This document shows positions 10,740 through 37,771 of a DNA stretch of 64,000 nucleotides, piece by piece. Both the position numbers and the translations under genes were made by a program. The stretch lies in contig OY760686.1 in NCBI GenBank assembly GCA_963663865.1, positions 2,848,001-2,912,000 of the forward strand. The letters are read 5' to 3'. Position 1 is the stretch's first letter. The number at the start of each line of letters is the position of its first letter. Origin of the DNA: Spirochaetota bacterium. GTDB lineage: Bacteria > Spirochaetota > UBA4802 > UBA5550. The notes beneath the pieces were generated by a model. That model saw only the letters and a list, made by a program, of their open reading frames with translations. It did not search any database and was not told where the DNA came from.

Positions 10740-10768
10740 GTAGAGCCGCCCAGATTGGGCGGCTCTAC
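10740..10768. repeat. GTAG-type REP-like palindrome, family 1, copy 2
   Basis: GTAGAGCCGCCCAGATTGGGCGGCTCTAC. Confidence 0.85.
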
Positions 10769-10782
10769 CCGTAGCGTTTGCG

Positions 10783-10814: not shown

Positions 10815-10849
10815 CAGGAGTGCCATCGATAGTAGAAATTTACAAGGCT

Positions 10850-10963
10850 TCATAGGCCTGGAGCAAGAAGCTGTTTCAACTTTGCATTTTCAGATTCAAG
10901 TTCCCGCATCTTCTTTAAATCTGAGACTCCCATTCCGGAATACTTTGAATGACAATTATAAAA
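10850..10963 (-). mobile_element. IS3-family transposase OrfA remnant
   Basis: Translates FYNCHSKYSGMGVSDLKKMRELESENAKLKQLLA, resembling the IS3/IS407-type OrfA pattern FYxWKxKYGGMxxSDxKRLKxLExENxRLKxLLA. No start, OrfB or terminal repeats seen. Confidence 0.75.
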
Positions 10964-11004
10964 ATAGAAATTGGTTCTACAAATGCCACTGTATTCTCCT
11001 TAGT

Positions 11005-20599: not shown

Positions 20600-22160
20600 A
20601 GCCCAATTCCTCGAAAACTTTTAGTAGTGCCTTCTTTGAGTCATCTTCCTCTTTGAGCAAGCTGGTAAAATCATTCTGTAACAGCTTCATCTTGTCATCA
20701 AAATCGATATTTTCATCCCTGTTTATGAATTCTATATACTTGCTGGGAACAAGCGAGAAATCTTTAGCCTTGATTTCATCAACTGTAGCACTATAGCAGT
20801 ACTCTGGTGTATTTTGGTAAGTCTTTTCATAATCAGTTTGTTGCCAGTTATGGTAAGTCGTTGCAATCGTTGCAATATCTTCTTCCGTTAGTTCTGTATA
20901 TTTTTTTTCGAAAGGCGAGCCCATTGTCCTCAAGTCAAAAAAAAGGATTTCACGTTCTCTGTTACGATACTTTTTTACAGTTCCATTATGCTCAACAGTT
21001 CTTGCTTTCTTGTTCTTATTTAGAATCCAAACAGTAACGCTAATATTTGTGGTATAGAACATATTCATGGGCAAAATCAAAATCGCTTCAACCAAATTAT
21101 TCTCAATCATCTGCCGTCTGATTTTGTATTCATCCCCTCCGCCGGAAAGCGCTCCATTGGCCAGGATAAATCCGGCAACACCGTTTTCAGACAGCTTTGA
21201 CACCATGTGCAGAATCCAGGCATAGTTGGCATTGCCTGTGGGTGGTATTTCATAACCATTCCAGCGGGAGTCATCAACTAATTCATTATCCGCCCGCCAC
21301 TGTTTCTGGTTAAACGGGGGATTGGCCATGATATAATCGGCTTTCAAGTCTTTGTGTTGGTCGCGGAAGAACGTGTTTTCGGCAACATCACCAAGGTTTC
21401 CGGAAATTCCCCTGATAGCCAGGTTCATCTTTGCCAGTTTGTAGGTTGTTGAAGTGTATTCCTGACCATAAATGGAAAGATTTTTCTTGTTCCCGTGATG
21501 GCTTTCTATAAATTTCACGGATTGCACAAACATACCGCCCGAACCGCAGCAGGGGTCATAGATTGTACCGCCGTAAGGTTCAATCATTTCTGCCAGCAGA
21601 TTAACAATGCACTTGGGTGTGTAGAATTCACCTTTTCCTTTTCCTTCAGCCAATGCGAATTTGCTCAGGAAATATTCATATACACGACCGACAATATCCT
21701 GTTCTTTGTCTTGAAGTGTATCGATGTTATTTATCGTATCAAGAAGTGAGGCCAGTTTGGCCACATCAAGGTCAAGCCGGGAATAGTAGTTGTCAGGCAA
21801 AGCGCCTTTTAATGAAGGGTTATTCTTTTCCACCGTTGCCAGTGCGGTATCAATCTTTAGAGCAATATCATTCTGCTTTGCGTTCTTCTTTAAATAATTC
21901 CAGCGGGATTCTTCGGGAAGATAAAACACATTTTTCATGGTGTAGAATTCCACCATGTCGATATATTTCTCTTTGCCTTCGACGATGAGCTCCCGTTTTC
22001 TTTCTTCAAACTTGTCGCTGGCAAATTTCAGGAATATCAAACCAAGAACAACATGCTTGTATTCGGATGATTCCACTTTTCCGCGTAGCTTGTTTGCCGA
22101 CTCCCAGAGGGATTCCTCGATTGATTTTTGATTTTTCGATGCTGTTTTTGTCTTTGCCAT
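20583..22160 (-). CDS. hsdM: Type I R-M N6-adenine methyltransferase
   Basis: LWESANKLRG, GEFYTP, YDPCCGSGGMF, ANPPFN. Confidence 0.97.
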   Translation of the reverse strand: MAKTKTASKNQKSIEESLWESANKLRGKVESSEYKHVVLGLIFLKFASDKFEERKRELIVEGKEKYIDMVEFYTMKNVFYLPEESRWNYLKKNAKQNDIALKIDTALATVEKNNPSLKGALPDNYYSRLDLDVAKLASLLDTINNIDTLQDKEQDIVGRVYEYFLSKFALAEGKGKGEFYTPKCIVNLLAEMIEPYGGTIYDPCCGSGGMFVQSVKFIESHHGNKKNLSIYGQEYTSTTYKLAKMNLAIRGISGNLGDVAENTFFRDQHKDLKADYIMANPPFNQKQWRADNELVDDSRWNGYEIPPTGNANYAWILHMVSKLSENGVAGFILANGALSGGGDEYKIRRQMIENNLVEAILILPMNMFYTTNISVTVWILNKNKKARTVEHNGTVKKYRNREREILFFDLRTMGSPFEKKYTELTEEDIATIATTYHNWQQTDYEKTYQNTPEYCYSATVDEIKAKDFSLVPSKYIEFINRDENIDFDDKMKLLQNDFTSLLKEEDDSKKALLKVFEELGYAIKL

Positions 22161-23098
22161 TAAAATTCCTTCTTATGCTTCCTTATTCAGCCCGCCATGG
22201 ACTTGCTGCGATTCGATGAGCAGCAATGGCGGGCTTGGAGCGGAGTTAAGAAATGTATATATCATCAATTCATTTTCCTCTTCACTGTGTTGGCGCTCTG
22301 ACTTTCGTATAACTATCATTGTCTCCACAAAAACTTCATTTAATATTTTTGGAGGTAACACATATAAAAATCAAACTATATTCATTAATATTCTGAAAAA
22401 AGTAAAACAAACTGCATAAAAATTTTGTTTAATTGTTAGTAGTATAAATTGCCTTTCGAACAACTGCCGGATAAGCTAAAATTTTCATTGAAGTTTTCGC
22501 AGTTGCCTCGCCATGACTTTGTCATTGGGTACTATCATCTCTTTAGCAAGTCATTGCATTGCGTGGAAAACCTGGCAGTATAAGTTGTTATAGTGCCCCT
22601 GAATACATAAGTGATAAAATTATAAAAATCGGCTTTGTATAAAGATATTGAACTGCGATACATGCAGCCACCTGTAAGAATAGAAACTCCACCGCACAAC
22701 ATACCCCACTCCTCCCAAAAAACCTATCCCTTCAGTGCCTACGTTGTACTTTTCACGGGCTGTTTTAGCGCGAAGAGCCCATTTCCGGGCGTTTTTGCCC
22801 CCTCACGGACTGTTTTTCCTTCGTTATATGTTCGTTCTTTTACTTTTTTTAATCTGATGCAATTTCTTTTAATTTTCCCCCGATGCCGTACGTTTTACTA
22901 AAATACCCGATACCGAAACAGAAGATGGAAAAGAACCATTTTCACGGATGCAAATCGCCCGGGCGCCTTTTCGTCATAGTACTCTTAGAACTTTTCTTTT
23001 TGCAAGAAAAGGAGTCAAAAGAAATCTGCCGCCAATGTTCCGGCATTCGGCTTCCCGACTCATCTTGTCATCCGCGGGGCGCTGCGTGTCACGGTGAG

Positions 23099-23127
23099 GT
23101 AGAGCCGCCCAAATTGGGCGGCTCTAC
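23099..23127. repeat. GTAG-type REP-like palindrome, family 1, copy 3
   Basis: GTAGAGCCGCCCAAATTGGGCGGCTCTAC, followed by the same AGGGTGCCGGAACC tail as copy 1. Confidence 0.85.
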
Positions 23128-23242
23128 AGGGTGCCGGAACCTATTGGCGATTAAATCAATATGATAACGTAATATTATAAAGAAGTCAAAGTGCCATCGG
23201 CTGCCAGGAACACAATGGCGGAATTAAGAGACTGCAAGCCCC

Positions 23243-23791
23243 CTGCTTCAACACCTCAACCAGTGCGATTTTCACGGATGAAAATCGCCTGGGCGCCGTT
23301 TCATCAGGATGATGATAACGGCGTTGCAATGGTCAATTAACTGCAAAGGCCAAGCCCTTCCGGCGCCTGAGGAACGGCTTTTTCCCGCCGCTTTTTGGCC
23401 GGTCAAAAAGCGGCAAAAGAAGTACCACGCTCTCAGCGTGAAAATGGATGCAGGCACCCTGCCCAAAATGCGCGTCGCGCAGCTGAACGAGTTAAAACCT
23501 GCGGCAACACACCTTTTTGGATCGAAAAAAGAAAGTAACAAAAAAGGGCCTCACACTCCCAGTGTGGAAAGGAACGGCAAGCTCCCTGCTTCAACACCTC
23601 AACCAGTGCGATTTGCATGGATGCAAATCGCCCGGGCGCTGTTTCATCAGGATGATGATAACGGCGTTGCAATGGTCAATTAACTGCAAATGCCAAGCCA
23701 TTCCGGCGATTGAGGAACGCCTTTTTTTGGCCACTTTTTTGTGGCGCGACAAAAAAGTGGCGGAAAATTGCCTGTGCGCTCCGCACAAAAA
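23243..23791 (+). repeat. Composite palindrome-rich repeat, two tandem right-hand copies (23243-23483 and 23586-23791)
   Basis: Direct repeats of 9517-9795; a further fragment lies at about 22938-22967. Confidence 0.92.
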
Positions 23792-23797
23792 ACAGCA

Positions 23798-23890
23798 GTA
23801 GGGGACCGGTCGAGACCGTCCCGATTAAACGCAGTACCACGCTCTCAGCGTGAAAATAGATGATGGTAGGGGACGGTCGAGACCGTCCCG
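23798..23890 (+). repeat. GTAG-type REP-like palindromes, family 2 (two copies)
   Basis: GTAGGGGAC(C)GGTCGAGACCGTCCCG at 23798-23823 and 23866-23890. Confidence 0.8.
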
Positions 23891-23909
23891 AAAAACCAAA
23901 GTGCCACTC

Positions 23910-24965
23910 TCACTTCTTTCCCCGCTCATTACGCCGGCGCTGAGTCGTCTTCTTTGCCTTTTTTGCAACCGCCCTCATATCCACCGCGGGATCATACTCA
24001 TCAACAATTTCGATACCGAGAAGAGTCTCCACAGCGTCCTCAATAGTAACAATGCCCGAGTAGTCTCCGTACTCGTTGAGGACAAAGCCCATCTGAGCCC
24101 CGTTTTTTGAGAACCACCCGATGAGTTTAAGCACGGACATTGTTTCGGGAAGATACAGCGGCTCTGTACTCACTGAGCGCAGCTTAACCTCATTCCTGGA
24201 GGACCCGATAAGCTCAATAAGCTCACGTCGCAGGACAAGCCCCTTAATCTCATTAGTATGCCTGTCGTAAAGAGGAATCCGAGAAAAGCGGAGCGTTTCG
24301 GCGGACGACCTTATGTCTTTAATGGATAAATCAGGGTCAAGTGTTTCTACAACCATTCGGGGAGTCATTATCTCGCGCACCCTTATTCGTCTCAGGCTGA
24401 GAAGGTTTTCAATTATATGGAACTCGGCCTTCTCGACCGCACCCTGCCTGTATCCAATTTTAATATAGTTATAAATCTCAGCCTTTGTTACCTCCTCGCT
24501 TCTGTGGCTTCCTGAAAAAAAACGCGAGACCCAGTTCATAGGAACCACAACCGGCTTAAGAATAAGGACAAGAAAGCGCAGAACGTAGGCGCACATCGGA
24601 CTGAGCGATTTCCAGTATCTGGCCCCTATTGTCTTGGGGATAATCTCTGAGAGCAGCAGAATGAGAAATGTGAGAACTGCCGAGAAGGCGCCCATCCATC
24701 TGGACCCGAACATCTCCACAGCCATCGCTCCTGAAACCGCCGCCCCGATAGTATGCGCGATCGTGTTTAAAGTCAGAATTGCCGCGATGGGCTCGTCTAT
24801 GTTTTCCTTCATCGCTTTCAGCATTGCACCGGCTTTTTTCCCTTTATCCACAAGGGTCTGAATAAAAGGCCTGCTCATGGACAGGAGCACGGCCTCGAGC
24901 ATGGAACAGGTAAACGAAAAGAATAAAAGAATGGCAACTACAGTTATAAGTTCAGTCATAATCAA
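23910..24965 (-). CDS. CNNM (DUF21)-CBS domain membrane protein, CorB/HlyC family
   Basis: CSMLEAVLLS, ILTLNTIAHTIGA, SEIIPKTIG, VREIMTPR, FSRIPLY, EYGDYSGIVTIED, EIVDEYD. Confidence 0.92.
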   Translation of the reverse strand: MIMTELITVVAILLFFSFTCSMLEAVLLSMSRPFIQTLVDKGKKAGAMLKAMKENIDEPIAAILTLNTIAHTIGAAVSGAMAVEMFGSRWMGAFSAVLTFLILLLSEIIPKTIGARYWKSLSPMCAYVLRFLVLILKPVVVPMNWVSRFFSGSHRSEEVTKAEIYNYIKIGYRQGAVEKAEFHIIENLLSLRRIRVREIMTPRMVVETLDPDLSIKDIRSSAETLRFSRIPLYDRHTNEIKGLVLRRELIELIGSSRNEVKLRSVSTEPLYLPETMSVLKLIGWFSKNGAQMGFVLNEYGDYSGIVTIEDAVETLLGIEIVDEYDPAVDMRAVAKKAKKTTQRRRNERGKK

Positions 24966-26820: not shown

Positions 26821-27720
26821 ATGGAAACCATGAACACTACGCGCCGAACCGCTGTATTCGGAAGACCGAATCTCTCAGAGGGCGCACTTGAATTCTACAA
26901 AAGACTTAACGCCTGCCCGTCAGTCTTCTGCCGAGGCCTTCCGGGCTCAGTCCGTGACAGGGCATATCTCTTTCTGACATCTTACTTTGGGGCAGGCCTC
27001 ATCGACCCGGATTTTTTTAAGGCCTACTTTCCGCCCTCATGGACCTTTGTCTATCACCTCATAGACAAAAGCCCTGACCCGTCCGCCCCCAATCTTCTGC
27101 AGAATGTCCTGCGTGCTCACGCGGCCGCGCTGCTTCTGCACTCCATCGACGACCATCTTGCCGACGGCGATCTTGATCCGGGTCACATTGAGGTTCTCGT
27201 CCGAAGCGAGATTTGGCGCAATATGATTGAGTCTCTCTCAATTCTGGGGGGGGATATCGGCACACCGGCCCGCGATGCTGTTTCAGAGAACCTGTCCCTC
27301 TACTACTACTCAATCACCCGCGATGATGAGCCGCGAAACCTCGAGCATTACTTAGACAACTTCCGCGGAGAGATGGCGACCTGGACAACCGTACCCGAAC
27401 TGATATCCATTACCTACAGAGACAACGGCGTAAGGAGCGGCATAAGGGCCGCCTACGAATCCTTCGGAATCGCGTGGAGGCTTCTTGACGACATCAACGA
27501 CGCAGATGAAGACATCGCCTCTTCAAAAACAACATCCGTGACTCTGGCCCCGGGGACGGCAGCGGCAGCACAGGATGGGCAAACCGGGCTCAGAGAGGCC
27601 GATATCCTGCTCATAAAAAGAATAGCGGCGGAACTAAAATACGCTGAGGAGATAACCGAAGCCCTGGGCTTTCATGAGCTTTCAATGGAGCTCAATAATA
27701 TGAGGATGGGACTCAAATGA
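26821..27720 (+). CDS. Class I isoprenoid synthase-fold protein (ComQ-like prenyltransferase candidate)
   Basis: Two Asp-rich motifs: LLLHSIDDHLADGD and FGIAWRLLDDINDADED. Helical character, 299 aa. Confidence 0.7.
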   Translation: METMNTTRRTAVFGRPNLSEGALEFYKRLNACPSVFCRGLPGSVRDRAYLFLTSYFGAGLIDPDFFKAYFPPSWTFVYHLIDKSPDPSAPNLLQNVLRAHAAALLLHSIDDHLADGDLDPGHIEVLVRSEIWRNMIESLSILGGDIGTPARDAVSENLSLYYYSITRDDEPRNLEHYLDNFRGEMATWTTVPELISITYRDNGVRSGIRAAYESFGIAWRLLDDINDADEDIASSKTTSVTLAPGTAAAAQDGQTGLREADILLIKRIAAELKYAEEITEALGFHELSMELNNMRMGLK

Positions 27721-28748
27721 ACGCGACAGGCGAGAATATAAGCCTCGAGCTTACCCGCCGCTGCAATTCGGCGTGCGCGCACTGCTTCGCCAGAGCCGGT
27801 ACCGGCGCTCCCGTCTCGCTTGATTATGAGCAGGCGGTTGAAATGGTTCTTGAGGCTGCATCCTGCGGATACAGCGGCCTTCATCTAACCGGAGGAGAGC
27901 CCCTCATGTGGCCGCGCCTGACAGAGTTAATCGAATTCGCACTGAAAACCGGATACGAAAACGTCTTCATAAACACAAACGGAACGCTCGTAGACCGGGA
28001 GTTCTGTAAAAGGATGGCGCCCTTTCGGGAGAGAGCGGCCTTCTCGGTCAGTCTTCAGGGCCCCGAAGACCTGCACGACTCTGTGAGAGGCAGGGGCTCA
28101 CACAGCGCGGCAAGCGGAGGCATTAAGCTTCTGCTTGAGTCGGGACTTCCTGCATACATCTTTTCCGCGGCAGGAAAGTCTCTGCTCCCTTCACTGGCTT
28201 CGTTCTGCTCCGCTGCCCTTCAAGCCTTCCATGAAATCAGCGGTATCGCTCTCATCCAGATGATCCGCATTCCCGGAACGGACATGAGCACCGAAGAGGA
28301 GATGCTCTCTGCCGAAGATATGCTGCAGGTGATCAGAACAGTATCGCTTCTCAACCTTGCCGGCGGCAGGGTTTACATTCTCGAAAACCCTGCCGCCGCT
28401 GCCGCGGCGAAAATGCTCAGGCTTCCATGCTTTCCGGCGACGCCTCATCCTGTTAGGCCGGGCCGTTTGACCGTGCTTGCCGACGGCCGCATTGTCACAT
28501 CGCACTCGTCAAGAAGCATTTTGGACCGATACAGCCCCGGGAAAATACGGAAGGTAATAGAGTCTGCGAAATATACAGAAGAGCTCGCTTCAGGAAACGA
28601 AATATGCGCGAACTGCCCCTTTCTGTCTCAGTGCTCGTTGTCCGGAGAAGCAAGGCCCTCTGACAGCTCAAGGTCCGCCGGGGGCAGCCCATTCTGTGTC
28701 GAGCTTATGCGGGCAGCTTCAGCCTGCCCGGTCAGCTCATCCTCCTGA
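27717..28748 (+). CDS. Radical SAM enzyme with SPASM-like C-terminal domain
   Basis: ELTRRCNSACAHC (CX3CX2C), LTGGEPL, INTNG, SLQGPEDLHDSVRG; C-terminal CANCPFLSQC..FC. ATGA overlap with the upstream gene. Confidence 0.92.
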   Translation: MNATGENISLELTRRCNSACAHCFARAGTGAPVSLDYEQAVEMVLEAASCGYSGLHLTGGEPLMWPRLTELIEFALKTGYENVFINTNGTLVDREFCKRMAPFRERAAFSVSLQGPEDLHDSVRGRGSHSAASGGIKLLLESGLPAYIFSAAGKSLLPSLASFCSAALQAFHEISGIALIQMIRIPGTDMSTEEEMLSAEDMLQVIRTVSLLNLAGGRVYILENPAAAAAAKMLRLPCFPATPHPVRPGRLTVLADGRIVTSHSSRSILDRYSPGKIRKVIESAKYTEELASGNEICANCPFLSQCSLSGEARPSDSSRSAGGSPFCVELMRAASACPVSSSS

Positions 28749-31700
28749 GGGTTATGATGCTCACATCATCATCTCCATACCGTATATTTCTGCCTGTCCC
28801 CTTCATAGCCTTCATGAGAGATTCATTAAACTCTTCCGGAAGAAGAGAATAGTCACATCCCTCAAGAACTTCCTTTAGATAGCGCTCATCCTTGAGCACC
28901 CTTCTCTCCTTCTCAGCTGGAATCGACACCGCCCCGAAGTCGTCGATCAGTCCATCGGTGTACATTACAAGCGCCGCTCCGGGACTAAATGGAAGGGTGT
29001 GTGTTTCGTAACGGGCGTCATGCTTAAGTCCGATAATCGGGCCCTTGGGCCTGCACGAATGAAGAACGCCCTCGGCATCGCGCATATACTGTTCAGGATG
29101 TCCCGCCACCGCAAAGGTTATTTTATCGTGCTCAAGGTCAATCTGAGCGAGGGCGCAGGTAAAAATAATATTATTGCTGCTGTGTTCAAGACAGAATTTG
29201 CTGTTCAGCCCTCGAATAATCTCTCCGGGGGTCATGCCACTCTTCTTCAAAAGGTTATATTCAGACATTATTGTAATTGAATTGAGCGACGCGTTTATGC
29301 CGTGCCCCGTCGCATCGGCCAGAAAGACATTGATGGTCCCATCCGGAAGCTCATATATGTCATATAGGTCGCCTCCAATCTCAATGAGAGGCTGATACGT
29401 CACGCTGAAGGCGACCCTGTCGGTCCTCACATCTGAAGCCATAAGTCTGGCGATAAAGCTCTTGGATATTTCAAGGTCACGGACAATAATCTCTTCCCAC
29501 TCCTTCATCTTGTCAACGGTATGAGATAGCTGTCTTCCCCTTTCAACGAGTGATGATTCGAGAACTTGCTTTTTGTCTGTCAGGTCTCTTCTTATGCGCT
29601 TCTCCATCTCAAACATGTGCTTCATGACGAGCTGATTCTGTACCCTGACCAGAAGCTCCCTCGGATTATAAGGCTTGGTTAGATAGTCGCTGCATCCGAT
29701 AGTGAAGCTTTTTACCAGGTCTTCAAGCTGGTTCTTGGCCGAAACCATTATCACCGGGATATAAGCATCCGGATATCTCGTCTTGAGAGAGGTTAAGATT
29801 TCATATCCGCTTACTCTGGGAAGCATTATATCAAGGAGTATGAGCTGAGGCTTCTCGGCATCGAGCATATCATAGGCCTGCATAGCGTCCGAGGCGGTCA
29901 ACACCCTGTATCCCTCATCAATGAGAATCCGCTTTAGAACATGCAGGCTGACCTCGTCGTCGTCAACGGCCATAATCAGCTCCCCGGCAAGGGGTGATGC
30001 TTCATATTTTGTATCAGGAATTGAGTCAGCAGCGATCTTTCGGTCAACTTCGGTTGATATTTCGCCCTCAGCAGCTCTGTGCTCCCCACGACTCATGGCA
30101 ATTGAAGAGACTAAAATAGAGTGTTCAAACGGAAGAAACACTGTGAACATGCTTCCGCGGCCAGGGGTGCTTGCCGCTTTGATTGTGCCTCCATGCAGCT
30201 CCACAAGCTTCTTTGTTATGGCAAGACCAAGTCCTGCTCCGCCCGCCATTCTCGTGTCGGCTGAGTCGGCCTGAACATATGGATCCCATATCTTTTCAAT
30301 TCGGTCCGGTTCAATACCCACTCCTGTGTCAGACACCCTGATTGTTATACCGTCATCGCCGGCACCCGCGCTGATAGCTATGCTCCCCCTTTCTGTATAC
30401 TTTGCGGCATTTCCGAGAATGTTCAGCAATATCTGTTCAATACGGTTCTTATCGCCGATTATTACAGGAAGCCCTGCCGGAACCGCGGAGTGCACCTCGA
30501 CAGGCCTGTCGCCGAGCAGACCCCTTATGAGAGATACGATTGATGGAATAGTCTCGGACAGCCTGACAGGTCCCACCATCAAGTCCGCCCTGTCAGCCCT
30601 GAGCTTGCTGAAGTCCAGAATCTCATTGACGAGGGAAGTAAGCCTTTTTGAGCTTGAGGCAATATAGGAAATATCCTCTCGCTGAGTCGTGTTAAGCGGC
30701 CCGGATCGCTCCGTAAGAAGGGTTTCAGCCAGCCCGGTAATTCCGTGGAGCGGAGTCCTCAGCTCATGAGATGTAGTCGCAAGAAAATCATCCTTCATCC
30801 GGTCAAGCACAAGCAGATCACCATGCGCGGTTTCAAGCTGCGTGTGCACCTTCGCAAATCGCGACGCCAGCGCCGAAGCGAAGATTAGTGTCATTGCAAA
30901 ATATCCCTCGGCTGTAAGGTCCGGCACATAGAGTATATCAAGGAAGCTCAGGCTGTTAATGATAAATACCGATGCCAGTACGCTCATTGACACCAGAATG
31001 TAAGCGGCATATGGCCTTTTAAGCCGAAAGCCCTTAATTGAAAGCCAGAGCGCGTAAAGAAAAACCGCGAGAGACTGCATTATGAAGCCGTCGTAAAGGT
31101 ACTCGGCTGTAAATGAAATATCATCATGAATTATGCATTCCGCCAGCACTGCAGCAGCGAAAAGCGAATTCACCGCGACAATAACCTTGATCAGGTTGTT
31201 CCTTCTGAATCCTAAAAATGAGTTAACGAATGAAACAAGCGACATGCATATTACGGCCGCGCAGAAATATGTTGAAACAACATACGCAAGATGCGAATCG
31301 ATAACCCACAGTACAAAGCCCTGGTAGCCTATTATGAATCCGGCGGCAGATAAAGCCAGTATGGAAAAATACAGATAGTAATGCTCTTTGCGCCTGAAAA
31401 AAAAGATAAGGCCGAAAAAGAAGACCAGAAAAGCGCTCAGCGACGAAAGAAAGATGTTCCAGACAAAGCCTCTCAACCAGAACGACCTTGCTTCAGGCTC
31501 CGCAGCAATCCTAACCGGAGCCGATATGCCCCCCTTAAAGTCCAGAAATCCGGATTTCACAGCGATAACATTACCGCCCTCTTTCAGAAGTCCGGAAGGA
31601 AGGGTTACGATGTCGGGTTTTCCCGGAATACGCTCAAAGCTGCCTGAAGCGTCAGTCCGTCGCGAGGAATAAAAAAGGCTGCCGTTAAGATACCACTCTG

Positions 31701-32055
31701 TTCCGGAATACTGCATGGGAAGAATCAGCGCGAGCCTGGTACCGCCGGACTTATTGTTTAAAAGAAGCCTGTACCAGGAATTCTCTCTGTGGTTCTTGAA
31801 CTTCTCATACATGTTCCACAGATAGTAGGGATGCACATAGTCCCAGTCCTCAAGATAGTGATCGGGCCTGGAATAAGCGGGGTCGTCATCAGCCTTAAAA
31901 AACCACCTGTTTTCGATTGTCTGTACTCTGCTTAGATCACCGCTTTGTATCTCGAAAATTCCGTCTGATGCGGTTGAGGCCTGTACCGACAAAACAGCCG
32001 GGCCCGAGAATAGAATTCCCAGGCCCAGACATAAAATGTAATAAATCCTATTCAC
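28732..32055 (-). CDS. Hybrid sensor: periplasmic jelly-roll + 7TM-DISM-like region + histidine kinase + receiver + SpoIIE/PP2C phosphatase
   Basis: Signal peptide and about 7 TM segments; H-box TSHELRTPL; NILGNAAKYT, DTGVGI, GAGLGL; REC (VDDD, LLDIMLP, TKP); PP2C (IGGDLYD, LADATGHG, YTDGL, DDVS). Confidence 0.92.
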   Translation of the reverse strand: MNRIYYILCLGLGILFSGPAVLSVQASTASDGIFEIQSGDLSRVQTIENRWFFKADDDPAYSRPDHYLEDWDYVHPYYLWNMYEKFKNHRENSWYRLLLNNKSGGTRLALILPMQYSGTEWYLNGSLFYSSRRTDASGSFERIPGKPDIVTLPSGLLKEGGNVIAVKSGFLDFKGGISAPVRIAAEPEARSFWLRGFVWNIFLSSLSAFLVFFFGLIFFFRRKEHYYLYFSILALSAAGFIIGYQGFVLWVIDSHLAYVVSTYFCAAVICMSLVSFVNSFLGFRRNNLIKVIVAVNSLFAAAVLAECIIHDDISFTAEYLYDGFIMQSLAVFLYALWLSIKGFRLKRPYAAYILVSMSVLASVFIINSLSFLDILYVPDLTAEGYFAMTLIFASALASRFAKVHTQLETAHGDLLVLDRMKDDFLATTSHELRTPLHGITGLAETLLTERSGPLNTTQREDISYIASSSKRLTSLVNEILDFSKLRADRADLMVGPVRLSETIPSIVSLIRGLLGDRPVEVHSAVPAGLPVIIGDKNRIEQILLNILGNAAKYTERGSIAISAGAGDDGITIRVSDTGVGIEPDRIEKIWDPYVQADSADTRMAGGAGLGLAITKKLVELHGGTIKAASTPGRGSMFTVFLPFEHSILVSSIAMSRGEHRAAEGEISTEVDRKIAADSIPDTKYEASPLAGELIMAVDDDEVSLHVLKRILIDEGYRVLTASDAMQAYDMLDAEKPQLILLDIMLPRVSGYEILTSLKTRYPDAYIPVIMVSAKNQLEDLVKSFTIGCSDYLTKPYNPRELLVRVQNQLVMKHMFEMEKRIRRDLTDKKQVLESSLVERGRQLSHTVDKMKEWEEIIVRDLEISKSFIARLMASDVRTDRVAFSVTYQPLIEIGGDLYDIYELPDGTINVFLADATGHGINASLNSITIMSEYNLLKKSGMTPGEIIRGLNSKFCLEHSSNNIIFTCALAQIDLEHDKITFAVAGHPEQYMRDAEGVLHSCRPKGPIIGLKHDARYETHTLPFSPGAALVMYTDGLIDDFGAVSIPAEKERRVLKDERYLKEVLEGCDYSLLPEEFNESLMKAMKGTGRNIRYGDDDVSIITLRRMS

Positions 32056-32074
32056 TTAATCAGGAAAAAGGTTA

Positions 32075-32290
32075 TCAGTACGGTCCCCTGACGGCCGCGT
32101 CACCAAGCTCAACCACTCTGTCCTTCTTGTCGATGATATCCGAGCAGATATCACCGCTGACGCTGTACCCCTGCGAGCTGAACCATTTTGCCAGAGCTCC
32201 AGCATCAGCTTCCGCTACTGTATCCATAAACCCCTTCAAAAGACCCTCGTCCTTTGACGCATCCGCCACGAAATCGATAAAACTCTTCAT
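32075..32290 (-). CDS. Nif11-like leader peptide, putative RiPP precursor (71 aa)
   Basis: GAGAGG RBS before ATG at 32290. MKSFIDFVADASKDEGLLKGF..ALAKWFSSQGYSVSGD resembles the Nif11 leader pattern F...DxxL...A..GY.(F/V)(S/T). Tail ..ELGDAAVRGPY. Confidence 0.7.
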   Translation of the reverse strand: MKSFIDFVADASKDEGLLKGFMDTVAEADAGALAKWFSSQGYSVSGDICSDIIDKKDRVVELGDAAVRGPY

Positions 32291-32521
32291 GCTACACCTC
32301 TCTTCATTGTATTTAAGCTTCAACCGGCAAGGCCGGGAAAGGGACAGAATGATTCCAAAAAAAAACATTTTACTGACATTACGTCAACAATAATTCTTGT
32401 TATGACTCAGCACGCAAAAATAATTACGGAAACGTTTTTTTTCATTTATCTCTAATCGGTCTGAAGTGAGTTGACAAAGCCGCGTTCTGCTTCAACTATT
32501 GCGGCATAAGATATATAAACC

Positions 32522-33337
32522 ATGGAGAGACAGTTGAGATTCTATTCAACAATACTGCTCATAATAACATCGCTTGTTTTTTTGAGGGGAGATGTCGGCG
32601 CCGCTCAGGGAGTAAACTTATCCGCCTCCCTGTCCCCTTCAGGATGGTCAAAGCTGGCTATGCCGTACACAGGCGAGTCCAACGGCACAGCAATCTCCGA
32701 TTCAGGTGTGCCCTCATTTCCCGGCACATCATCGTGCTATTCTCTCTCAGCCGCATACTACTACGAAAAATTTCAGGCCGGCATTTCGGCGTCAAGATTC
32801 AGCTCGGACAGCATGAGCTTCCCCGCCGGCAACAGTGAAGCGCTGTCTACCTCGGAGGCGGCCACTCTGCGTTTTGACGCGGGCCTGAGACTCGCAGAAG
32901 ATGAGTCAGCCTCCTCCAGCTTTATCTTCGTAAGCGCTCTCAGAAACAGCCTTTCATTTTCCTACGGCTCCTCCGAATCCACCGGATGGGGAGGCGCGGC
33001 AGGATTCAGAGGCTTCTACACTATACTTTCAGCCGGTAATTTTGAGTTCGCGTGGGGTGCTGAGTTGCTGATCGGCCGATTCTACAAAGCCGATTTCACC
33101 TCAGATCTGGGTTTTTCAGAGCCTCACAAGACAGAATCTCTTTACGCCTCGGCTTCAATCACTGCCGGAGTGTGTTTTGTCCCATGGGGGACTTCACTGC
33201 TGCTGAAAGCCTCGTCTGAAGCAGTCCACACAGCCTACAGCGCCATGCTCGGGCCTGATCGCATTGATGTTTCCTTCAGGTCTGTAGGCGTATACGCCGG
33301 ATTTGAAATTGTCTATTGCGGGGCCTGGGACAGATGA
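32522..33337 (+). CDS. Exported protein, probable outer-membrane beta-barrel
   Basis: Signal peptide; Gly/Ser/aromatic-rich amphipathic strands. Confidence 0.5.
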   Translation: MERQLRFYSTILLIITSLVFLRGDVGAAQGVNLSASLSPSGWSKLAMPYTGESNGTAISDSGVPSFPGTSSCYSLSAAYYYEKFQAGISASRFSSDSMSFPAGNSEALSTSEAATLRFDAGLRLAEDESASSSFIFVSALRNSLSFSYGSSESTGWGGAAGFRGFYTILSAGNFEFAWGAELLIGRFYKADFTSDLGFSEPHKTESLYASASITAGVCFVPWGTSLLLKASSEAVHTAYSAMLGPDRIDVSFRSVGVYAGFEIVYCGAWDR

Positions 33338-33786
33338 GGCATTTTCTTTTCATAACTGCAGCGGCTGTTCTGACAGCCGGCTGCTCATCTCACGGTACAG
33401 GCTTGAAATACAGCGATCCGATTTACGAAGAAGCAGGTTTTATAAACTACGAGTATTCCAACCGTGGAATCAGCGATGAGCTCGCTCTGCAGAACTGCCA
33501 CATCAGACTGCGAATTGACAGGCCCGAGTCAGAATTCACTGTAACAGCGGCCCCCTCAAGGCTAAGAAGAGCAGGAGCTCTTTCCGGGACAGCCATACTC
33601 AGGGCCCGGTCCGACAGCTCCGGGAAGGTCATATCGGTGAGCTTCCTGAAGCGCGCAGGCCTTGGCCTTGACAGCGAGGCAGAAGCCATTGTCAGAAAAA
33701 TGAAGCTGAAACCCCTGCTGAAACAGGGTCGGCCTCTTCCCTCAGAGGTCACCGTGCGCGTTGTATTTCCAGGAGGCCGCCCATGA
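33334..33786 (+). CDS. TonB C-terminal domain lipoprotein
   Basis: Lipobox LTAGC; GTAILRARSDSSGKVISV..GLGLDSEAEAIVRKMKLKP..GRP..VRVVF. Confidence 0.75.
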   Translation: MRHFLFITAAAVLTAGCSSHGTGLKYSDPIYEEAGFINYEYSNRGISDELALQNCHIRLRIDRPESEFTVTAAPSRLRRAGALSGTAILRARSDSSGKVISVSFLKRAGLGLDSEAEAIVRKMKLKPLLKQGRPLPSEVTVRVVFPGGRP

Positions 33787-35963
33787 GATTAGCGGCCGCC
33801 CTCATCATCCTCATAGCTTCAAGCGCCGCCGCTGCCGCTTTCACCCTTTCGGGGTCGGTGTTTGATGCTGACAGCGGCAAGCCCCTGAACAATGCAACGG
33901 TTGGCATCATGGAACATGGAGCCGTAGCAGAAAGCGGCAGCGGCGGCGTCTTCGTAATCAGAGACATACCCCGGTCTGTCTGTACCGTCACTGTGACAGC
34001 AACCGGCTACCGGGCTTATGAACGGAAAATCAGCCTCAACAGGGACAGAAGCATCACCGTGCGGATGGAGAAGGATCCGTACCTCCAGGAGTTAATATCC
34101 CCCCCTGAAAAAAAAGAAGGACAGCCGGGCTATAAAAGCATCTCCAGAGAAGACATCAAGAAGTATCCAATGCGGGGCTTCGGGGACTCACTGCACCTGC
34201 TGCAGTCATTGCCGGGCATTGGAGGCGGATCATCGCTCTCCACAGTCCCCATTATAAGGGGGCAGAACCCGCTTTACACGAAATACTACATTGACGGGGT
34301 TCCCGTTGACTTCCCTTACCACTACGCTGCGGCCTTCATGCCGATGCTCTCGTCCCTTAACGAAGAGAGCATCGACTCGGCATCGCTTAACAGCGGCCCC
34401 GGATCGTCAGCGCTCGGCGACAATCTCGGAGCAGCTGTTATTATAAACACCAGAAGCGCTGAAGCCCCGGGGCTGAACGCCAGAATCCACATTGACCCGT
34501 TCCTTCCGCTCTTCCCCGGCATCTCATTTACCGCTGTACCTTACGCGGGCTTCTCCGCCTCCGGGAACGCCAGGCGCACAACGGCAGACATTCTCGGCGA
34601 CTTCGAGTACACTGATTCATCCATGCGAGACCACTTTCTCAAGCTTGAATGGAATCCGCACAGCAGCCACAGGCTCACGGCATTTACCACTGGCTCATCG
34701 GACAGCTTCAGCTACAAAAAATGGAATGCCGAGTCATCATCTTCGGTGTCATCGGCGCTTCACGAATTTGCCTTCAACGACATGATCGCGGTCAGAACAC
34801 GTCTTTCGCATTACGGATGGGAACAGAGCTTTGAAAACAAACAGCTTTACGAAAACGGAACCGGCGCCCGTGTCGTCTTCAACCCTTCCGAGACAAGGTT
34901 TTACCAGGAAGCTTTTTACGCGCATGACAGCTTCAGCGCTTCAGTAGGCTGGGAATATGCCGCCTACAGCGGAGGCTGCCGCGGGAATATCAGCCTTGAG
35001 CAGATAGGCGACATTGACCTGCCAGACCTCTCGTCGCTGAACGAATACCTGGTCTTTCCGGTCGAAGGCAGGGGGCTTTCATCTTTCTGCTCAGCACAGG
35101 GCTCTTTCGGCAAATACTCCGGAGAACTCGCCCTGCGCTATGAGCATTACGGCCCGCTCGACACCCACTCCGTGACCTGGTCGGCAAAAGCCGCCATGTC
35201 TGTGCTGAAGGGACTGTCCGTTTATCTCTCTGCAGGTCGCTCAGAAGCTCATCCGGACATATACTACTACCTGGGCAGCTCAGAGCCGGACTTCAGGAAC
35301 GCTTCATCGCTGAGCTTTGAAGCCGGCGCGGAGGCTTCCGCGCTCAAAATCTTCACGTTCAACGCGGCGCTTTACACGGCTGACTACGACAACCTCAATC
35401 CGGGGGCTGTTTACACAGTAAGCGACGAATATCTCAAGCGCCTTCTGCAGATACACCCGTTCTCCGATGAAAACAGCGGCCGAAGCTTCGGCAGCGAACT
35501 CAGCGCCGCGTGGAATTACAAAAGGCTTTCCGGCAGGGCCGCTTACTCATTCTGTTCGACAAAGATGAATACCTCAAGCGGCCAGGAAGCTCCCTCAGAG
35601 TTTTCGCAGTCCCACATATTCCGCCTGCTTCTCGATACGCATTCGGGACGATGGACCTGGTCGCTCATCTGGAGCGCCTATTCCTCACTACCGTACACCC
35701 CTGTAACTTCACAGTCTGAGAACGGAACGGCTTACGGGGACTACAACTCCGCCCGCTTCAACGCGCACAACAGGGTCGACCTGAAAGCCGCCTACACATT
35801 TCCGGGCGGCTCGCGAATCTCAGTCGAGCTGTGGAACGCTTTCTTCCAGAGCAATACCGTATTCGAGTACTACAGAGAAGGCCGCGCGCTGAGCTCATCA
35901 AACCCGGAAAAGTTCGACGACATTCCGGTATTTCTCTGGGTCGCCGCCGAGGTTTCCCTGTGA
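33783..35963 (+). CDS. TonB-dependent receptor with N-terminal carboxypeptidase-regulatory-like domain
   Basis: LSGSVFDADSGKPLNNATV; plug motif LQSLPGI..IIRG..YYIDGVPV; barrel strands; YNSARF..HNRVDLK. Confidence 0.88.
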   Translation: MRLAAALIILIASSAAAAAFTLSGSVFDADSGKPLNNATVGIMEHGAVAESGSGGVFVIRDIPRSVCTVTVTATGYRAYERKISLNRDRSITVRMEKDPYLQELISPPEKKEGQPGYKSISREDIKKYPMRGFGDSLHLLQSLPGIGGGSSLSTVPIIRGQNPLYTKYYIDGVPVDFPYHYAAAFMPMLSSLNEESIDSASLNSGPGSSALGDNLGAAVIINTRSAEAPGLNARIHIDPFLPLFPGISFTAVPYAGFSASGNARRTTADILGDFEYTDSSMRDHFLKLEWNPHSSHRLTAFTTGSSDSFSYKKWNAESSSSVSSALHEFAFNDMIAVRTRLSHYGWEQSFENKQLYENGTGARVVFNPSETRFYQEAFYAHDSFSASVGWEYAAYSGGCRGNISLEQIGDIDLPDLSSLNEYLVFPVEGRGLSSFCSAQGSFGKYSGELALRYEHYGPLDTHSVTWSAKAAMSVLKGLSVYLSAGRSEAHPDIYYYLGSSEPDFRNASSLSFEAGAEASALKIFTFNAALYTADYDNLNPGAVYTVSDEYLKRLLQIHPFSDENSGRSFGSELSAAWNYKRLSGRAAYSFCSTKMNTSSGQEAPSEFSQSHIFRLLLDTHSGRWTWSLIWSAYSSLPYTPVTSQSENGTAYGDYNSARFNAHNRVDLKAAYTFPGGSRISVELWNAFFQSNTVFEYYREGRALSSSNPEKFDDIPVFLWVAAEVSL

Positions 35964-37771
35964 AGCGTTTAATGCTCATATTTCTGCTTTTTATTTTAGG
36001 GGCGAATGTGCACGCGGAGATTTACGACTCCCCGTTTCACAACAGGCAGGTCTACAGCGAAAATGCCGATATCCTCAAGAGAATAATTTCGCGCGGGCAG
36101 CACAGGACTGCTGACATAGAGACGCTCGTAAAATACCTGTACGCGCTTGAAAGCTTTAAGGAAGTCATTCAGTGGTCCGGCAGGATAAAGCCCTCTGAAA
36201 GAAGCACTGAAGTCCTCTACATGAGGGCCTCATCTTACGCCGCGCTTTCCGAGTACGCCTCTGCAGCAAGAGAGCTTGAAGAGCTTTTCAGACATCGTGG
36301 CACTGGCCGCTCTGATGCCGCACGCATCCGAGAACAGATAGCCATTCTGCGCTCATCGCTTCCAACATCAGGAAGGCCCGAGTTCAGCCGTCCGCACCCT
36401 GACGGGAGCGGCCTGACACCGATTGGACGCATCGACATGAAATCACTGACAATTCTCGCTGACAGAGCCCGCAGCAGGTTCATCCTCTGGGATGACAGGG
36501 GCAAAGAGGTCAAAGAACTGCCGCCTGCGCTGTACGGGCTTTCTCCGTCCAGCCTTGAATATCTGTCTGTTTCCGCCGACGGACGTGAGCTTCTCGCCAG
36601 CGTCCGTGACGAGGACTCGGCAGAGATACTATACGCCAGAAGGTCATCCGCTGATGAAAAACCCGACTGGGTATCGCCCTTCATCCTTAATCTCGGAACA
36701 GTCAACACATCAGCGCACTTCATGCCCGATGGAATTCACGCGGTCTTCACGTCTTCACGCGGCTTCGGAGGGGGGCTTGATATCTATTCTGTCCGGCGCG
36801 ATGAAGACGGAGGCTGGTCTGACGTGAGAAGAATCGAAGGAGCAAACACCCCGCACGATGAGCCCTCAGTCTTTATTCACCCTGACGGCGAAACGCTTTA
36901 CTTTTCAAGCGGGGGCCTGCCCGGTCAGGGCGGCTTTGACCTCTTTACGGCCAGGCTGCTAAAGAAGGGATTGTCGTTCAAAACAGCCGATATCCGACCC
37001 CTTAAACCGTTTAACACCTGGCGCAACGAAGCGCGAGTACCGGTCATACCAGCTGACTCATCACAGGCATATCTTGCCTTCACAATCAATGGAAGAGACA
37101 GCGTCTACAGCGGCCTGCTCCGAGGCTACATGCCCGCGCCGGTCGCGCTTGTCAACATTAGGACGGCTGACGCCTCGTCGAAGGAGCCATTGACAGCAAT
37201 GGTCAAGGTCATAGGAGGCGACAGACCGGAGTCAGATCCATCCGTTTATATCAACATTACTGACAACCAGGGGAATGCCCGCTTCGCGCTCGAGAGGGGC
37301 AGACAGTACACTATTACGCTCTGGTCACAGGGATTTCTCTACGAATCGCTGGAGCTTAATGTTCCTCATGGCGCCGACAGGGTTGACAGGAGCTGCTATC
37401 TCAGGAAGGGCGCCATTAAAAGCGGCTACTCGTTCCTTGCCGACAGAATCTACTTCGACACCGGTTCATATTCAATACGCAGGGAATCCCAGCCCGAGCT
37501 CGAACGCCTCTACGACTTTCTGCATAAAAACCGCGGCCTTGACGTTATAATCTCAGGCTACACCGACAATGTCGGCGGTTACGAGTACAACATGAAGCTT
37601 TCGAGAAAAAGGGCAGAAGCAATCGCAGGCTATCTTAAAAAACGGGGCATCAGCAGATGGCGAATCGAAACAGAGGGCTTCGGTTACACCCGCAGCATCG
37701 CCCCGAACACGACCGAAGAGGAAAGGCGTAAAAACAGGCGTGTTGAAATCACCGTTACTTCATCAGAATAA
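35960..37771 (+). CDS. OmpA-family protein with TPR-like and PD40 repeats
   Basis: GTG start overlapping the TBDR stop; signal peptide. PD40 (PSVFIHPDGETLYFSSGGLPGQGGFDLF); OmpA_C (IYFDTGS..GYTDNVG..YNMKLSRKRAEA..NRRVEI). Confidence 0.9.
   Translation: MKRLMLIFLLFILGANVHAEIYDSPFHNRQVYSENADILKRIISRGQHRTADIETLVKYLYALESFKEVIQWSGRIKPSERSTEVLYMRASSYAALSEYASAARELEELFRHRGTGRSDAARIREQIAILRSSLPTSGRPEFSRPHPDGSGLTPIGRIDMKSLTILADRARSRFILWDDRGKEVKELPPALYGLSPSSLEYLSVSADGRELLASVRDEDSAEILYARRSSADEKPDWVSPFILNLGTVNTSAHFMPDGIHAVFTSSRGFGGGLDIYSVRRDEDGGWSDVRRIEGANTPHDEPSVFIHPDGETLYFSSGGLPGQGGFDLFTARLLKKGLSFKTADIRPLKPFNTWRNEARVPVIPADSSQAYLAFTINGRDSVYSGLLRGYMPAPVALVNIRTADASSKEPLTAMVKVIGGDRPESDPSVYINITDNQGNARFALERGRQYTITLWSQGFLYESLELNVPHGADRVDRSCYLRKGAIKSGYSFLADRIYFDTGSYSIRRESQPELERLYDFLHKNRGLDVIISGYTDNVGGYEYNMKLSRKRAEAIAGYLKKRGISRWRIETEGFGYTRSIAPNTTEEERRKNRRVEITVTSSE

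Follow-up and report, generated by a model that had tools for sequence, protein, structure and literature searches.

A conserved spirochaete gene cassette joins a Tyr-ended precursor-like peptide to an isoprenoid-synthase-fold enzyme, a radical SAM enzyme and a membrane sensor: a candidate peptide signalling system

Introduction

Prenylated peptide pheromones have been described from Bacillus, where the signal is ComX, and from Paenibacillus, where it is PalX (PMC10853753). The PalPXQ system of Paenibacillus alvei, as presented in that report, consists of a kinase, a precursor with an NHLP leader and a C-terminal Trp, and a prenyltransferase with the isoprene-synthase fold; PalQ prenylates a C-terminal Trp only, and residues added after this Trp abolish activity (PMC10853753). 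ComQ is described as prenylating an internal Trp, which then cyclises (PMC13290415). Here we analyse a locus of related design in a Spirochaetota bacterium (GenBank assembly GCA_963663865.1, contig OY760686.1, positions 2,848,001 to 2,912,000 of the forward strand), in a stretch of 64,000 nucleotides that we call the window. Four genes encode a small precursor-like peptide that ends in Tyr, an enzyme with a predicted isoprenoid-synthase fold (hereafter the fold enzyme), a radical S-adenosylmethionine (SAM) enzyme and a large sensor with a seven-transmembrane (7TM) module. The four genes almost certainly form one functional unit. Our preferred reading, which we hold tentatively and at slightly less than an even chance, is that they make a signal of the RiPP type (a peptide made by the ribosome and modified after translation), in which leader-guided prenyl and radical modification of the C-terminal Tyr yields a product read by the 7TM sensor.

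The closest described system is PalPXQ, which takes the place that an initial annotation of this locus had given to ComQXP. As far as the PalPXQ report describes it, the two clusters share a histidine kinase, a precursor whose leader is long and structured, and a trans-IDS-like enzyme with the isoprene-synthase fold (IDS, isoprenyl-diphosphate synthase); in both, the only conserved core position is a C-terminal aromatic residue; and neither has an exporter, the PalX leader serving to enhance recognition by the enzyme (PMC10853753). The acceptor of PalQ is Trp, other electron-rich residues having remained unmodified in the tests reported there (PMC10853753), whereas the invariant residue here is Tyr. 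The PalPXQ leader is of the NHLP type and the spirochaete leader is remotely Nif11-like; a radical SAM enzyme co-occurs strictly with the cassette described here and is absent from PalPXQ; the sensor, unlike the PalPXQ kinase, is of the 7TMR-DISM hybrid kind and carries receiver and PP2C domains; and the hosts are diderm spirochaetes, Desulfobacterota and cyanobacteria, whereas PalPXQ belongs to Bacillota. We set the enzyme family apart from PalQ and ComQ by their published descriptions.

In ComQXPA of Bacillus subtilis, likewise, a ribosomal peptide is modified by an isoprenyl-diphosphate-synthase-like enzyme and sensed by a polytopic membrane kinase encoded next to it, but the system lacks a radical SAM enzyme, unlike the spirochaete cassette. 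ComX has a short, unstructured leader, and the regulator to which ComP signals, ComA, is a separate protein. Tyr prenylation is the province of cyanobactin prenyltransferases of the PagF/PirF type, which have an ABBA-barrel fold. Enzymes of this type prenylate Tyr in ribosomal peptides (PMC13290415) and are not tied to a receptor, and they differ from the enzyme described here, whose isoprenoid-synthase fold is all-helical. Full-text searches of the literature, with most subscription journals and supplements beyond reach, yielded no description of a cassette that combines Tyr with a radical SAM enzyme, in agreement with the initial annotation, which knew of no such combination. ComQXP and PalPXQ already exemplify the kind of system, in which an isoprenoid-synthase-fold enzyme is encoded with a ribosomal peptide and a neighbouring kinase; the present one differs in the putative Tyr target, a Gln-to-Arg change in the enzyme, the co-occurrence of a radical SAM enzyme, the leader type, the receptor class and the host phyla.

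Results

A four-gene cassette recurs within one spirochaete order

All four genes stand together in 13 of the 20 loci fetched from relatives, and in these, as in the window, a modifying enzyme, a precursor and a membrane kinase are encoded side by side in the manner of ComQXPA. Across 61 genomes of the same order, counted from the search tables, the fold enzyme and the radical SAM enzyme (E ≤ 1e-40) occupy an identical set of 23. The peptide profile matches 27 genomes and the N-terminal 400 residues of the sensor (E ≤ 1e-30) are found in 29, each including 22 of the 23 that carry the enzymes. The four-gene co-occurrence proposed at the outset thus holds within this order; elsewhere other partners join the enzyme and peptide, and four genomes of the order lack the enzymes, as discussed below.

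The genes are arranged as two pairs. The ATG of the radical SAM gene overlaps the stop codon of the fold-enzyme gene by 4 bp, an overlap of the kind that couples translation, and the peptide open reading frame (ORF) lies upstream of the sensor's GTG on the same strand with 19 bp between them. The sensor and radical SAM genes are convergent and their 3' ends share 17 bp (Table 1). When checked against the ORF list and the sequence, the four ORFs with their coordinates and 19-bp spacing, the VRGPY end of the peptide, its own ribosome-binding site and both Asp-rich motifs of the fold enzyme were all as the initial annotation gave them. The peptide and the N-terminal 400 residues of the sensor are each single-copy in the genome, and relatives have a sensor orthologue encoded immediately downstream of the peptide. 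Both in the 61 genomes of the order and in the 20 loci, homologues of the peptide were found beside genes of the enzymes or of the sensor. Among 66 distinct peptides from outside the window, 28 are followed by the sensor on the same strand within 400 bp, and the gene just upstream is that of the radical SAM enzyme in 24 and of the fold enzyme in 4. The arrangement is far beyond chance: it recurs across genomes, and its peptides end in Tyr at a frequency well above that of background ORFs.

The peptide carries a structured leader and ends in Tyr

The 71-aa peptide has no Pfam or NCBIfam match at E ≤ 1 except one row at chance level (E 0.12; 12 bits, where the cut-off is 288) for a metallo-beta-lactamase model of NCBIfam, and the 299-aa fold enzyme has none at that threshold. 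The Nif11 and isoprenoid-synthase labels were therefore checked by profile and by structure. Homologues of the peptide were collected by iterated hidden Markov model (HMM) searches over 99 loci, 20 from relatives and 79 from a genome collection. A C-terminal Tyr is present in 65 of the 67 distinct homologues, compared with 162 of 6547 background small ORFs (2.5%) in the same loci. A model of the leader only, which is free of last-column bias, gave the same picture (63/65), so the conserved terminal Tyr that had been singled out in the window peptide is borne out among its homologues. One of the two exceptions is an ORF that reads past ...TAY and the other ends in ...FVYAKL. These data indicate that the 71-aa ORF is a real conserved gene. 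The shared N-terminal pattern M-x-x-F-I-D-F supports its start at 32290 over that of a longer ORF from 32368.

The peptide consists of a structured leader of ~56 residues followed by a variable tail that ends in Tyr71. Among 65 homologues the tail has a median length of 15 residues and positions -2 to -6 vary. Cys occurs in 7 of these tails and Trp in 5, too seldom for a Trp acceptor of the ComX or PalX kind, and the only Trp of the window peptide lies in the leader, as the translation had already suggested to the first annotators. A search of 5.8 billion proteins with the single sequence returned the peptide itself alone, and a search with its profile returned 11 matches, unnamed or 'hypothetical' and devoid of Pfam domains.

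The likeness of the peptide to Nif11-type precursors is distant. Profile-profile comparison by hhalign of 37 peptides with nine Nif11 proteins (collected with PF07862 from four cyanobacterial genomes) pointed to remote similarity (probability 75.9%, E 2.3e-5, 52 columns) that includes a G-Y-x-(V/F)-(S/T) turn, and a Nif11 cluster ranks second for the peptide in the Atlas (0.78), which we treat as a lead only. Direct HMM matches are all below threshold, with 2 of the 37 homologues matched by PF07862 (best E 0.028) and 4 by TIGR03798 (best 0.027); the window peptide matches neither at E ≤ 1 and the other rows among the 37 are scattered chance hits. A cleavage site of the Gly-Gly type is a feature of precursors with Nif11-like leaders, and the 37-sequence alignment has no conserved GG or GA column between leader and tail.

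The fold enzyme differs from ComQ and PalQ at a position linked to acceptor choice

The AlphaFold2 (AF2) model of the 299-aa protein is confident, with a predicted local distance difference test (pLDDT) score of 91.1 and a predicted template-modelling score of 0.90. Its top Foldseek matches are all trans-polyprenyl diphosphate synthases (template-modelling scores 0.45-0.66), and VIA-align superposes 269 of its 299 residues on the polyprenyl-synthase fold with a root-mean-square deviation of 3.1 Å (Z 20.9). The isoprenoid-synthase fold that the initial annotation had read from two Asp-rich motifs is thus supported by modelling as a class I, all-helical trans-isoprenyl-diphosphate-synthase fold. 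The motifs themselves, DDHLADGD (residues 110-117) and DDINDADED (residues 223-231), fall within the consensus LHSxDDHxxDG and FGxAWRxxDDxxDxxxD of 19 homologues from relatives. These share a mean column identity of 39%, and H107, S108, H112, W219, R220, D223, D224, D227 and D231 are invariant among them.

Searched against PDB sequences, the enzyme profile matched over the second Asp-rich motif only, best with 8hdl_A ('Trans-prenyltransferase', the depositor's name; E 0.005). In trans-IDS-like peptide prenyltransferases, a Gln directly upstream of the second Asp-rich motif (SARM) has been implicated in Trp recognition, and those members whose characterisation is reviewed in the same source all target Trp (PMC13290415). 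In HMMER alignments, the second motif of our family aligns with the SARM of 8hdl_A and of 4wk5_A, and the Gln of FQLADD/FQIYDD falls on the invariant R220 (WRLLDD), so that the family has an Arg where a conserved Gln would be expected. An altered acceptor would fit this change. As judged from these alignments, the family departs from ComQ and PalQ exactly at the position of acceptor choice. Chain-elongating synthases typically carry RRG after the first Asp motif; by eye, RRG is absent from the 19-sequence consensus, which would fit a transferase rather than an elongase. Altogether we regard prenylation as the modification in question to be evenly balanced with its alternatives.

The wider relatives of the enzyme are largely unannotated. 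The nearest Atlas clusters by language-model features (0.95-0.96) are labelled 'hypothetical protein' and are commonest in Actinomycetota, Myxococcota and Chloroflexota, which hints at a larger unannotated enzyme superfamily.

The radical SAM partner resembles peptide-modifying enzymes and lacks a leader-binding domain

The 343-aa protein matches the Pfam Radical_SAM family (E 4.6e-23, 82.6 bits) and Fer4_12. The three Cys of its CX3CX2C cluster motif (C16, C20 and C23) are invariant in 27 homologues, as are C297, C300, C306 and C327 of a C-terminal auxiliary motif, CX2CX5C...C. A full SPASM motif has seven Cys; Pfam SPASM is not matched here, and four rather than seven C-terminal Cys are invariant. 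The AF2 model (pLDDT 91.3) superposes over its full length on anSMEcpe, SuiB and SkfB, which upholds the earlier assignment as SPASM-like at the level of fold, and it also superposes on PqqE (Z 20.6); sequence identity to the SPASM/twitch structures is 12-18% (Table 1). The full-length fold, CX3CX2C and a Cys-rich C-terminal domain are thus common to this enzyme and the SPASM/twitch enzymes anSME, SuiB, SkfB, CteB and ChlB. It differs in its four C-terminal Cys and in having no RiPP recognition element (RRE), the N-terminal leader-binding domain that SuiB and CteB possess: the protein starts 15 residues before CX3CX2C, and the alignments begin only at residue 103 of SuiB and residue 90 of CteB. 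From its model, then, the enzyme is a look-alike of SPASM-type peptide modifiers.

NCBIfam models match the radical SAM core below threshold, among them AhbC, ScmF and the mycofactocin maturase (TIGR03962, E 1.8e-16, 60.2 bits against a cut-off of 265, short of what an MftC equivalog would score). Mycofactocin offers a parallel, since MftC is a radical SAM/SPASM-type enzyme whose target is the C-terminal Tyr of MftA, a small precursor. The likeness consists of partial HMM similarity over the core. The cassette differs from mycofactocin in having no MftB, MftD, MftE or MftF genes and in placing an isoprenoid-synthase-fold partner where mycofactocin has an RRE chaperone; with position -2 of the tails variable, the conserved Val-Tyr end of the mycofactocin precursor is absent as well.

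Structured leaders and radical SAM enzymes are also common in antimicrobial RiPP clusters, and the nearest folds here include maturases of sactipeptides and of the sporulation killing factor. The product could accordingly be an antimicrobial or another non-signalling RiPP, with the sensor merely regulating its production or immunity. We judge this very improbable: the loci conserve neither a transporter nor an immunity gene, the tail is short, in this order the peptide gene goes with the sensor and not with the enzymes, and in another phylum a different signalling protein takes the sensor's place.

The leader is predicted to dock on the fold enzyme

A model of the complex between the fold enzyme and the peptide scored 0.69 (runs of 0.70, 0.68 and 0.69), compared with 0.02 for the best of three controls. 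In calibration, 58 of 80 solved complexes and 2 of 110 mismatched pairs came up to this mark, counts that hold roughly here because the model was built on custom alignments. At least 89% of contacts are common to the runs, and the pLDDT of the partner reaches at least 82. The predicted interface joins enzyme residues 34-67, among which L40 and P41 are invariant and G61 nearly so, to peptide residues 3-62. The model therefore places the leader, with confidence, on the N-terminal helices of the fold enzyme. It is neutral on entry of Tyr71 into the active site, speaking neither for nor against it.

The missing RRE, the translational coupling of the two enzyme genes, the existence of enzyme fusions and the complex model together suggest that the fold enzyme presents the substrate both to its own active site and to that of the radical SAM enzyme. 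Of the eight long family members examined, five are fusions of fold enzyme and radical SAM enzyme, and in three the fold enzyme is joined to FAD-binding oxidoreductase domains. The enzymes probably act on the C-terminus of the peptide.

Other phyla attach different partners to the same core

The enzyme profile found 285 representatives at E ≤ 0.001 among 1.84 billion proteins and 62 in the set of 5.8 billion, where those with names are 'hypothetical protein' bar one 'class 1 isoprenoid biosynthesis enzyme'. Relatives of the enzyme are encoded on 102 stretches of the genome collection, from which 79 loci were kept. Labelled hosts are Spirochaetota/Leptospirales, Desulfobacterota, cyanobacteria (Calothrix and Aetokthonos), Telluribacter, and one metagenome-assembled genome each from Planctomycetota and Firmicutes. 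Clustering of 1002 neighbouring ORFs returned as its only frequent groups the enzymes, the sensor, a cyclase-STAND-TPR protein and a B12-type radical SAM enzyme; a peptidase, an exporter or a TonB-type protein as conserved neighbour was considered and rejected. Three architectures emerge. The spirochaete type consists of a peptide-sensor pair and an enzyme-radical-SAM pair. In the Desulfobacterota type, the order is a protein of ~1200 aa with Guanylate_cyc, AAA_16 (STAND) and TPR domains, then the fold enzyme, the radical SAM enzyme and the peptide; in 30 loci (for example L045:2287-5892) the multidomain protein is encoded immediately upstream of the fold enzyme. In the cyanobacterial/Bacteroidota type (3/3 loci examined), fold enzyme and peptide are accompanied by a conserved protein of 271-302 aa and by a FAD_binding_4 oxidase. 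In a quick IQ-TREE tree of 86 enzyme sequences, none dropped, the cyclase-context rows form one clade (32 rows, SH-aLRT support 91) and the cyanobacterial/Bacteroidota rows another (98).

This comparison identifies the fold enzyme and the Tyr-ended peptide as the invariant core. Judging from gene content, the oxidative partner is interchangeable, being either a radical SAM or a flavin enzyme, and a signal-transduction protein has been attached to the core at least twice. The proximity of the enzymes and peptide to the Guanylate_cyc-AAA_16-TPR protein is a second, independent tie to signal transduction, and the protein itself is a candidate cytosolic receptor or effector for the Tyr-ended peptide.

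The same protein bears on another explanation, in which the lipidated small protein stays inside the producing cell, reaches the 7TM domain by way of the membrane or, in Desulfobacterota, binds the TPR domain, and reports the supply of isoprenoid, SAM or redox equivalents. Such a cell-autonomous role would fit a Desulfobacterota partner made up of soluble-type Pfam domains only (Guanylate_cyc, AAA_16 and TPR), a leader that stays folded and intact on the enzyme in the model, and conserved neighbourhoods in which signal peptide, exporter and peptidase are all absent. Against this, the ComX cluster is not known to include a dedicated exporter, and TPR receptors of the RRNPP type bind peptides that have been re-imported. 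The PalX cluster too, as its report describes it, does without a dedicated exporter (PMC10853753), and the duplicated peptide-sensor pairs of one spirochaete genome (G007) resemble diversifying pairs of signal and receptor. We consider the cell-autonomous explanation quite unlikely. In G007, a stretch of 20 kb (L026, C29:70000-89999) holds two peptide-sensor pairs, two fold enzymes and one radical SAM enzyme; the two peptide tails differ (...TVQPLY and ...NNNVKY), and the pairs look like duplicated signal-receptor pairs.

In the cyanobacterial and Telluribacter loci the FAD_binding_4 oxidase stands in for the radical SAM enzyme. This replacement, together with the FAD fusions, fits chemistry centred on a phenol and raises a further possibility, that the peptide is a scaffold in the manner of mycofactocin or pyrroloquinoline quinone (PQQ) biosynthesis, from which a prenylated and oxidised Tyr-derived small molecule would be released by a housekeeping peptidase to act as a diffusible signal or a redox cofactor. 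In favour of a scaffold, the terminal Tyr alone is invariant and the preceding residues vary freely, and the N-terminal radical SAM core is shared with the mycofactocin maturase and PqqE. Variable tails are, however, equally typical of pherotype-like peptide signals; the score against the mycofactocin model lies far below its cut-off; no MftB-, MftE- or MftD-like gene or peptidase is conserved nearby; and the ties to receptors suit a ligand better than a cofactor. A scaffold peptide is in our view unlikely.

Several neighbours of these loci deserve mention in their own right. The B12-type radical SAM enzyme (for example L045:10493-11764, L026:9396-10970 and L036:9919-11886) occurs with the cassette in 28 loci, often last in the Desulfobacterota-type order. 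Some members carry a B12-binding/DUF4070-type domain, and in some spirochaete loci the enzyme is encoded immediately upstream of the peptide. We considered it as a part of the window locus and rejected it, the only trace in this genome being a weak match at 1.56 Mb. The cyanobacterial and Telluribacter loci (L110:664-4144, L111:6929-10380 and L123:6887-11940) encode peptides that end in ...INY or ...VNY; their 271-302-aa protein has no known family label and is 48% identical between the two phyla, and L110 also contains a convergent gene for a 1371-aa AAA_16-GAF-HATPase protein.

The sensor and the layout of the locus

The sensor begins with a signal or transmembrane segment and an extracytoplasmic domain, followed by the 7TM module and a chain of kinase, receiver and phosphatase domains (Table 1). 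Residues 1-200 match no Pfam family at E ≤ 10, so that they contain no known DISMED domain. The signature motifs are intact in the translation: the H-box SHELRTPL, the receiver Asp region, and GGDLYD and ADATGHG of the PP2C domain. We lean slightly towards the view that the product of the cassette is sensed by this adjacent protein.

A GC-rich hairpin lies 47 nt past the peptide stop codon and within the first 20 codons of the sensor. It folds with -32.2 kcal/mol (z -3.95), and none of 200 shuffled sequences was equally stable; the terminator scan that listed it returned 3 sites where 5.8 were expected, so that the scan itself is not significant. As a lead only, the hairpin may be a partial terminator or attenuator, or a processing site, that sets the ratio of peptide to sensor transcript. 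No Rfam family was found between positions 22000 and 33000 of the window.

Table 1. Cassette genes, associated signals, sensor domains and superpositions of the radical SAM model. Positions are those of the window unless residues are given.
Feature	Position	Strand	Evidence	Remarks
Isoprenoid-synthase-fold enzyme, candidate peptide prenyltransferase	26821..27720	+	ORF	299 aa
Radical SAM enzyme	27717..28748	+	ORF; Pfam Radical_SAM	343 aa
Sensor	28732..32055	-	ORF; Pfam domains	1107 aa, GTG start
Precursor-like peptide	32075..32290	-	ORF	71 aa, ends VRGPY (Tyr71)
Peptide ribosome-binding site, GAGAGGTG	32295..32302	-	read from sequence	ends 4 nt before peptide ATG
14-bp GC-rich hairpin, then CUGUUUUGUC (U-rich run)	31998..32028	-	terminator scan, fold	
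Sensor: signal/first transmembrane segment, then extracytoplasmic domain	N-terminal	-		domain ~170 aa, no family match
Sensor: 7TMR-DISM_7TM (PF07695)	residues 199-399		48 bits, cut-off 29	
Sensor: HisKA	residues 420-487		Pfam	
Sensor: HATPase_c	residues 534-644		Pfam	
Sensor: receiver (Response_reg)	residues 694-805		Pfam	
Sensor: SpoIIE/PP2C phosphatase	residues 904-1105		Pfam	
Radical SAM model on anSMEcpe	model 4-343 on chain 2-368		VIA-align, Z 26.1	314 aligned
Radical SAM model on SuiB	from SuiB residue 103		Z 25.6	305 aligned
Radical SAM model on SkfB			Z 25.2	266 aligned
Radical SAM model on ChlB			Z 23.8	318 aligned
Radical SAM model on CteB	from CteB residue 90		Z 23.7	290 aligned

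Discussion

In the mechanism that we infer, the structured leader of the precursor would bind the N-terminal helices of the fold enzyme, whose two Asp-rich motifs, with Mg, would ionise a prenyl diphosphate. The C-terminal Tyr would then capture the prenyl cation, either at the phenol ring or at its oxygen. The radical SAM partner could carry out an oxidative step on the prenyl-Tyr, such as a cyclisation, a cross-link or a decarboxylation, and in other phyla a flavoenzyme of the VAO/BBE type would do so in its place. Enzymes with the FAD_binding_4 domain oxidise 4-alkylphenols and cyclise prenylated phenols, which we cite as rationale only. After whatever processing and export it may undergo, the lipidated product, with its leader removed or kept, would be the ligand of the putatively co-transcribed 7TM sensor, and the sensor's chain of kinase, receiver and PP2C domains would feed a partner-switching output.

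Several observations weigh against this signalling mechanism. The peptide has no signal sequence, and the loci examined show no conserved peptidase or exporter next to the cassette, which extends to the relatives' neighbourhoods the absence already noted at the window locus. The leader is only remotely Nif11-like and does not file in the Nif11 family. In the complex model, confident contacts end at peptide residue 62, leaving the last nine residues, including Tyr71, without confident placement. A class I fold with Asp motifs could also be a cyclase or synthase that acts on a non-peptide isoprenoid, the trans-IDS-like peptide prenyltransferases described as characterised all act on Trp (PMC13290415), and the window enzyme is the most divergent row of the enzyme tree, with a branch of 1.58. 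The 7TM sensor stands beside the cassette in this spirochaete order only. Finally, four genomes (G023, G045, G059 and G060; 83, 93, 95 and 90% complete) have peptide-sensor pairs in which neither enzyme profile matches, the sensor of one being split (L039). These pairs imply either that modification is not obligatory or that they are remnants.

Such pairs, together with genomes (G042 and G027) in which the enzyme pair and the peptide-sensor pair lie on different contigs or ~12 kb apart, would be expected if the linkage were partial, that is, if the peptide were an unmodified accessory of the sensor and the enzymes made an unrelated terpenoid. This is the explanation to which we give least credence, and it would be surprising on three counts: the peptide gene of Desulfobacterota and cyanobacteria has the enzyme genes as its immediate neighbours and no sensor, the complex model puts the leader on the enzyme where its controls do not, and the peptide is found in nearly every genome of the order that carries the enzymes.

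At two of the enzyme-less loci the neighbouring genes are unrelated, with an Fe-S protein and hydrolases at one and an Rce1-like protease at the other. The latter, a membrane protease of the CPBP or 'CAAX prenyl endopeptidase' family (L039:7431-8555 in G045), is encoded ~1 kb from the pair; as a single-locus observation, it is a candidate processing protease and a lead only.

If the proposed signalling mechanism is right, the chemistry of this fold class would extend from Trp to Tyr with an added radical SAM step, and a Tyr prenyltransferase specific for the terminus would be useful for lipidating peptides. The findings also suggest that a radical SAM enzyme may borrow leader recognition from a partner enzyme. 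For spirochaetes, in which the literature searched describes no peptide signalling, the cassette provides a candidate pair of signal and receptor that can be tested, and its invariant C-terminal Tyr offers a simple handle for mass spectrometry. The most far-reaching form of the idea, that this is the first ribosomal peptide-pheromone system of spirochaetes, with a new Tyr-prenylating enzyme branch that doubles as the leader-binding subunit of the radical SAM enzyme and a core wired independently to three types of receptor, we regard as on the doubtful side. The receptors would be the kinase-receiver-PP2C protein with its 7TM module in Leptospirales, the cytosolic cyclase-STAND-TPR protein in Desulfobacterota and possibly an AAA_16-GAF-kinase protein in one cyanobacterium, and in that case a prenyl-tyrosine peptide would be a widespread and unrecognised signalling currency of anaerobic and sediment bacteria.

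Other features of the window

Divergent from the peptide gene, an operon on the forward strand (32522-37771) encodes a 271-aa protein, a TonB_C protein, a CarboxypepD_reg-Plug protein that resembles TonB-dependent receptors and an OmpA/PD40 protein. The 271-aa protein has a hydrophobic N-terminus and no family match, and in the 20 loci from relatives no homologue of it accompanies the cassette; the same holds for the ThiF and DUF3332 genes that flank the locus. On the other side, the non-coding stretch from 22938 to 23911, between a type I methylase gene and a CNNM/CBS gene, contains direct repeats with a period of ~340 bp, in which copies of 171 nt are 89% alike and shorter repeats of 36-43 nt also occur, with no Rfam match. 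Further upstream, positions 10000-22200 form a block of low GC content (0.31-0.44 against ~0.50 around it) that ends with a gene for HsdM, a type I restriction-modification methylase (20583-22160), and is probably an acquired island.

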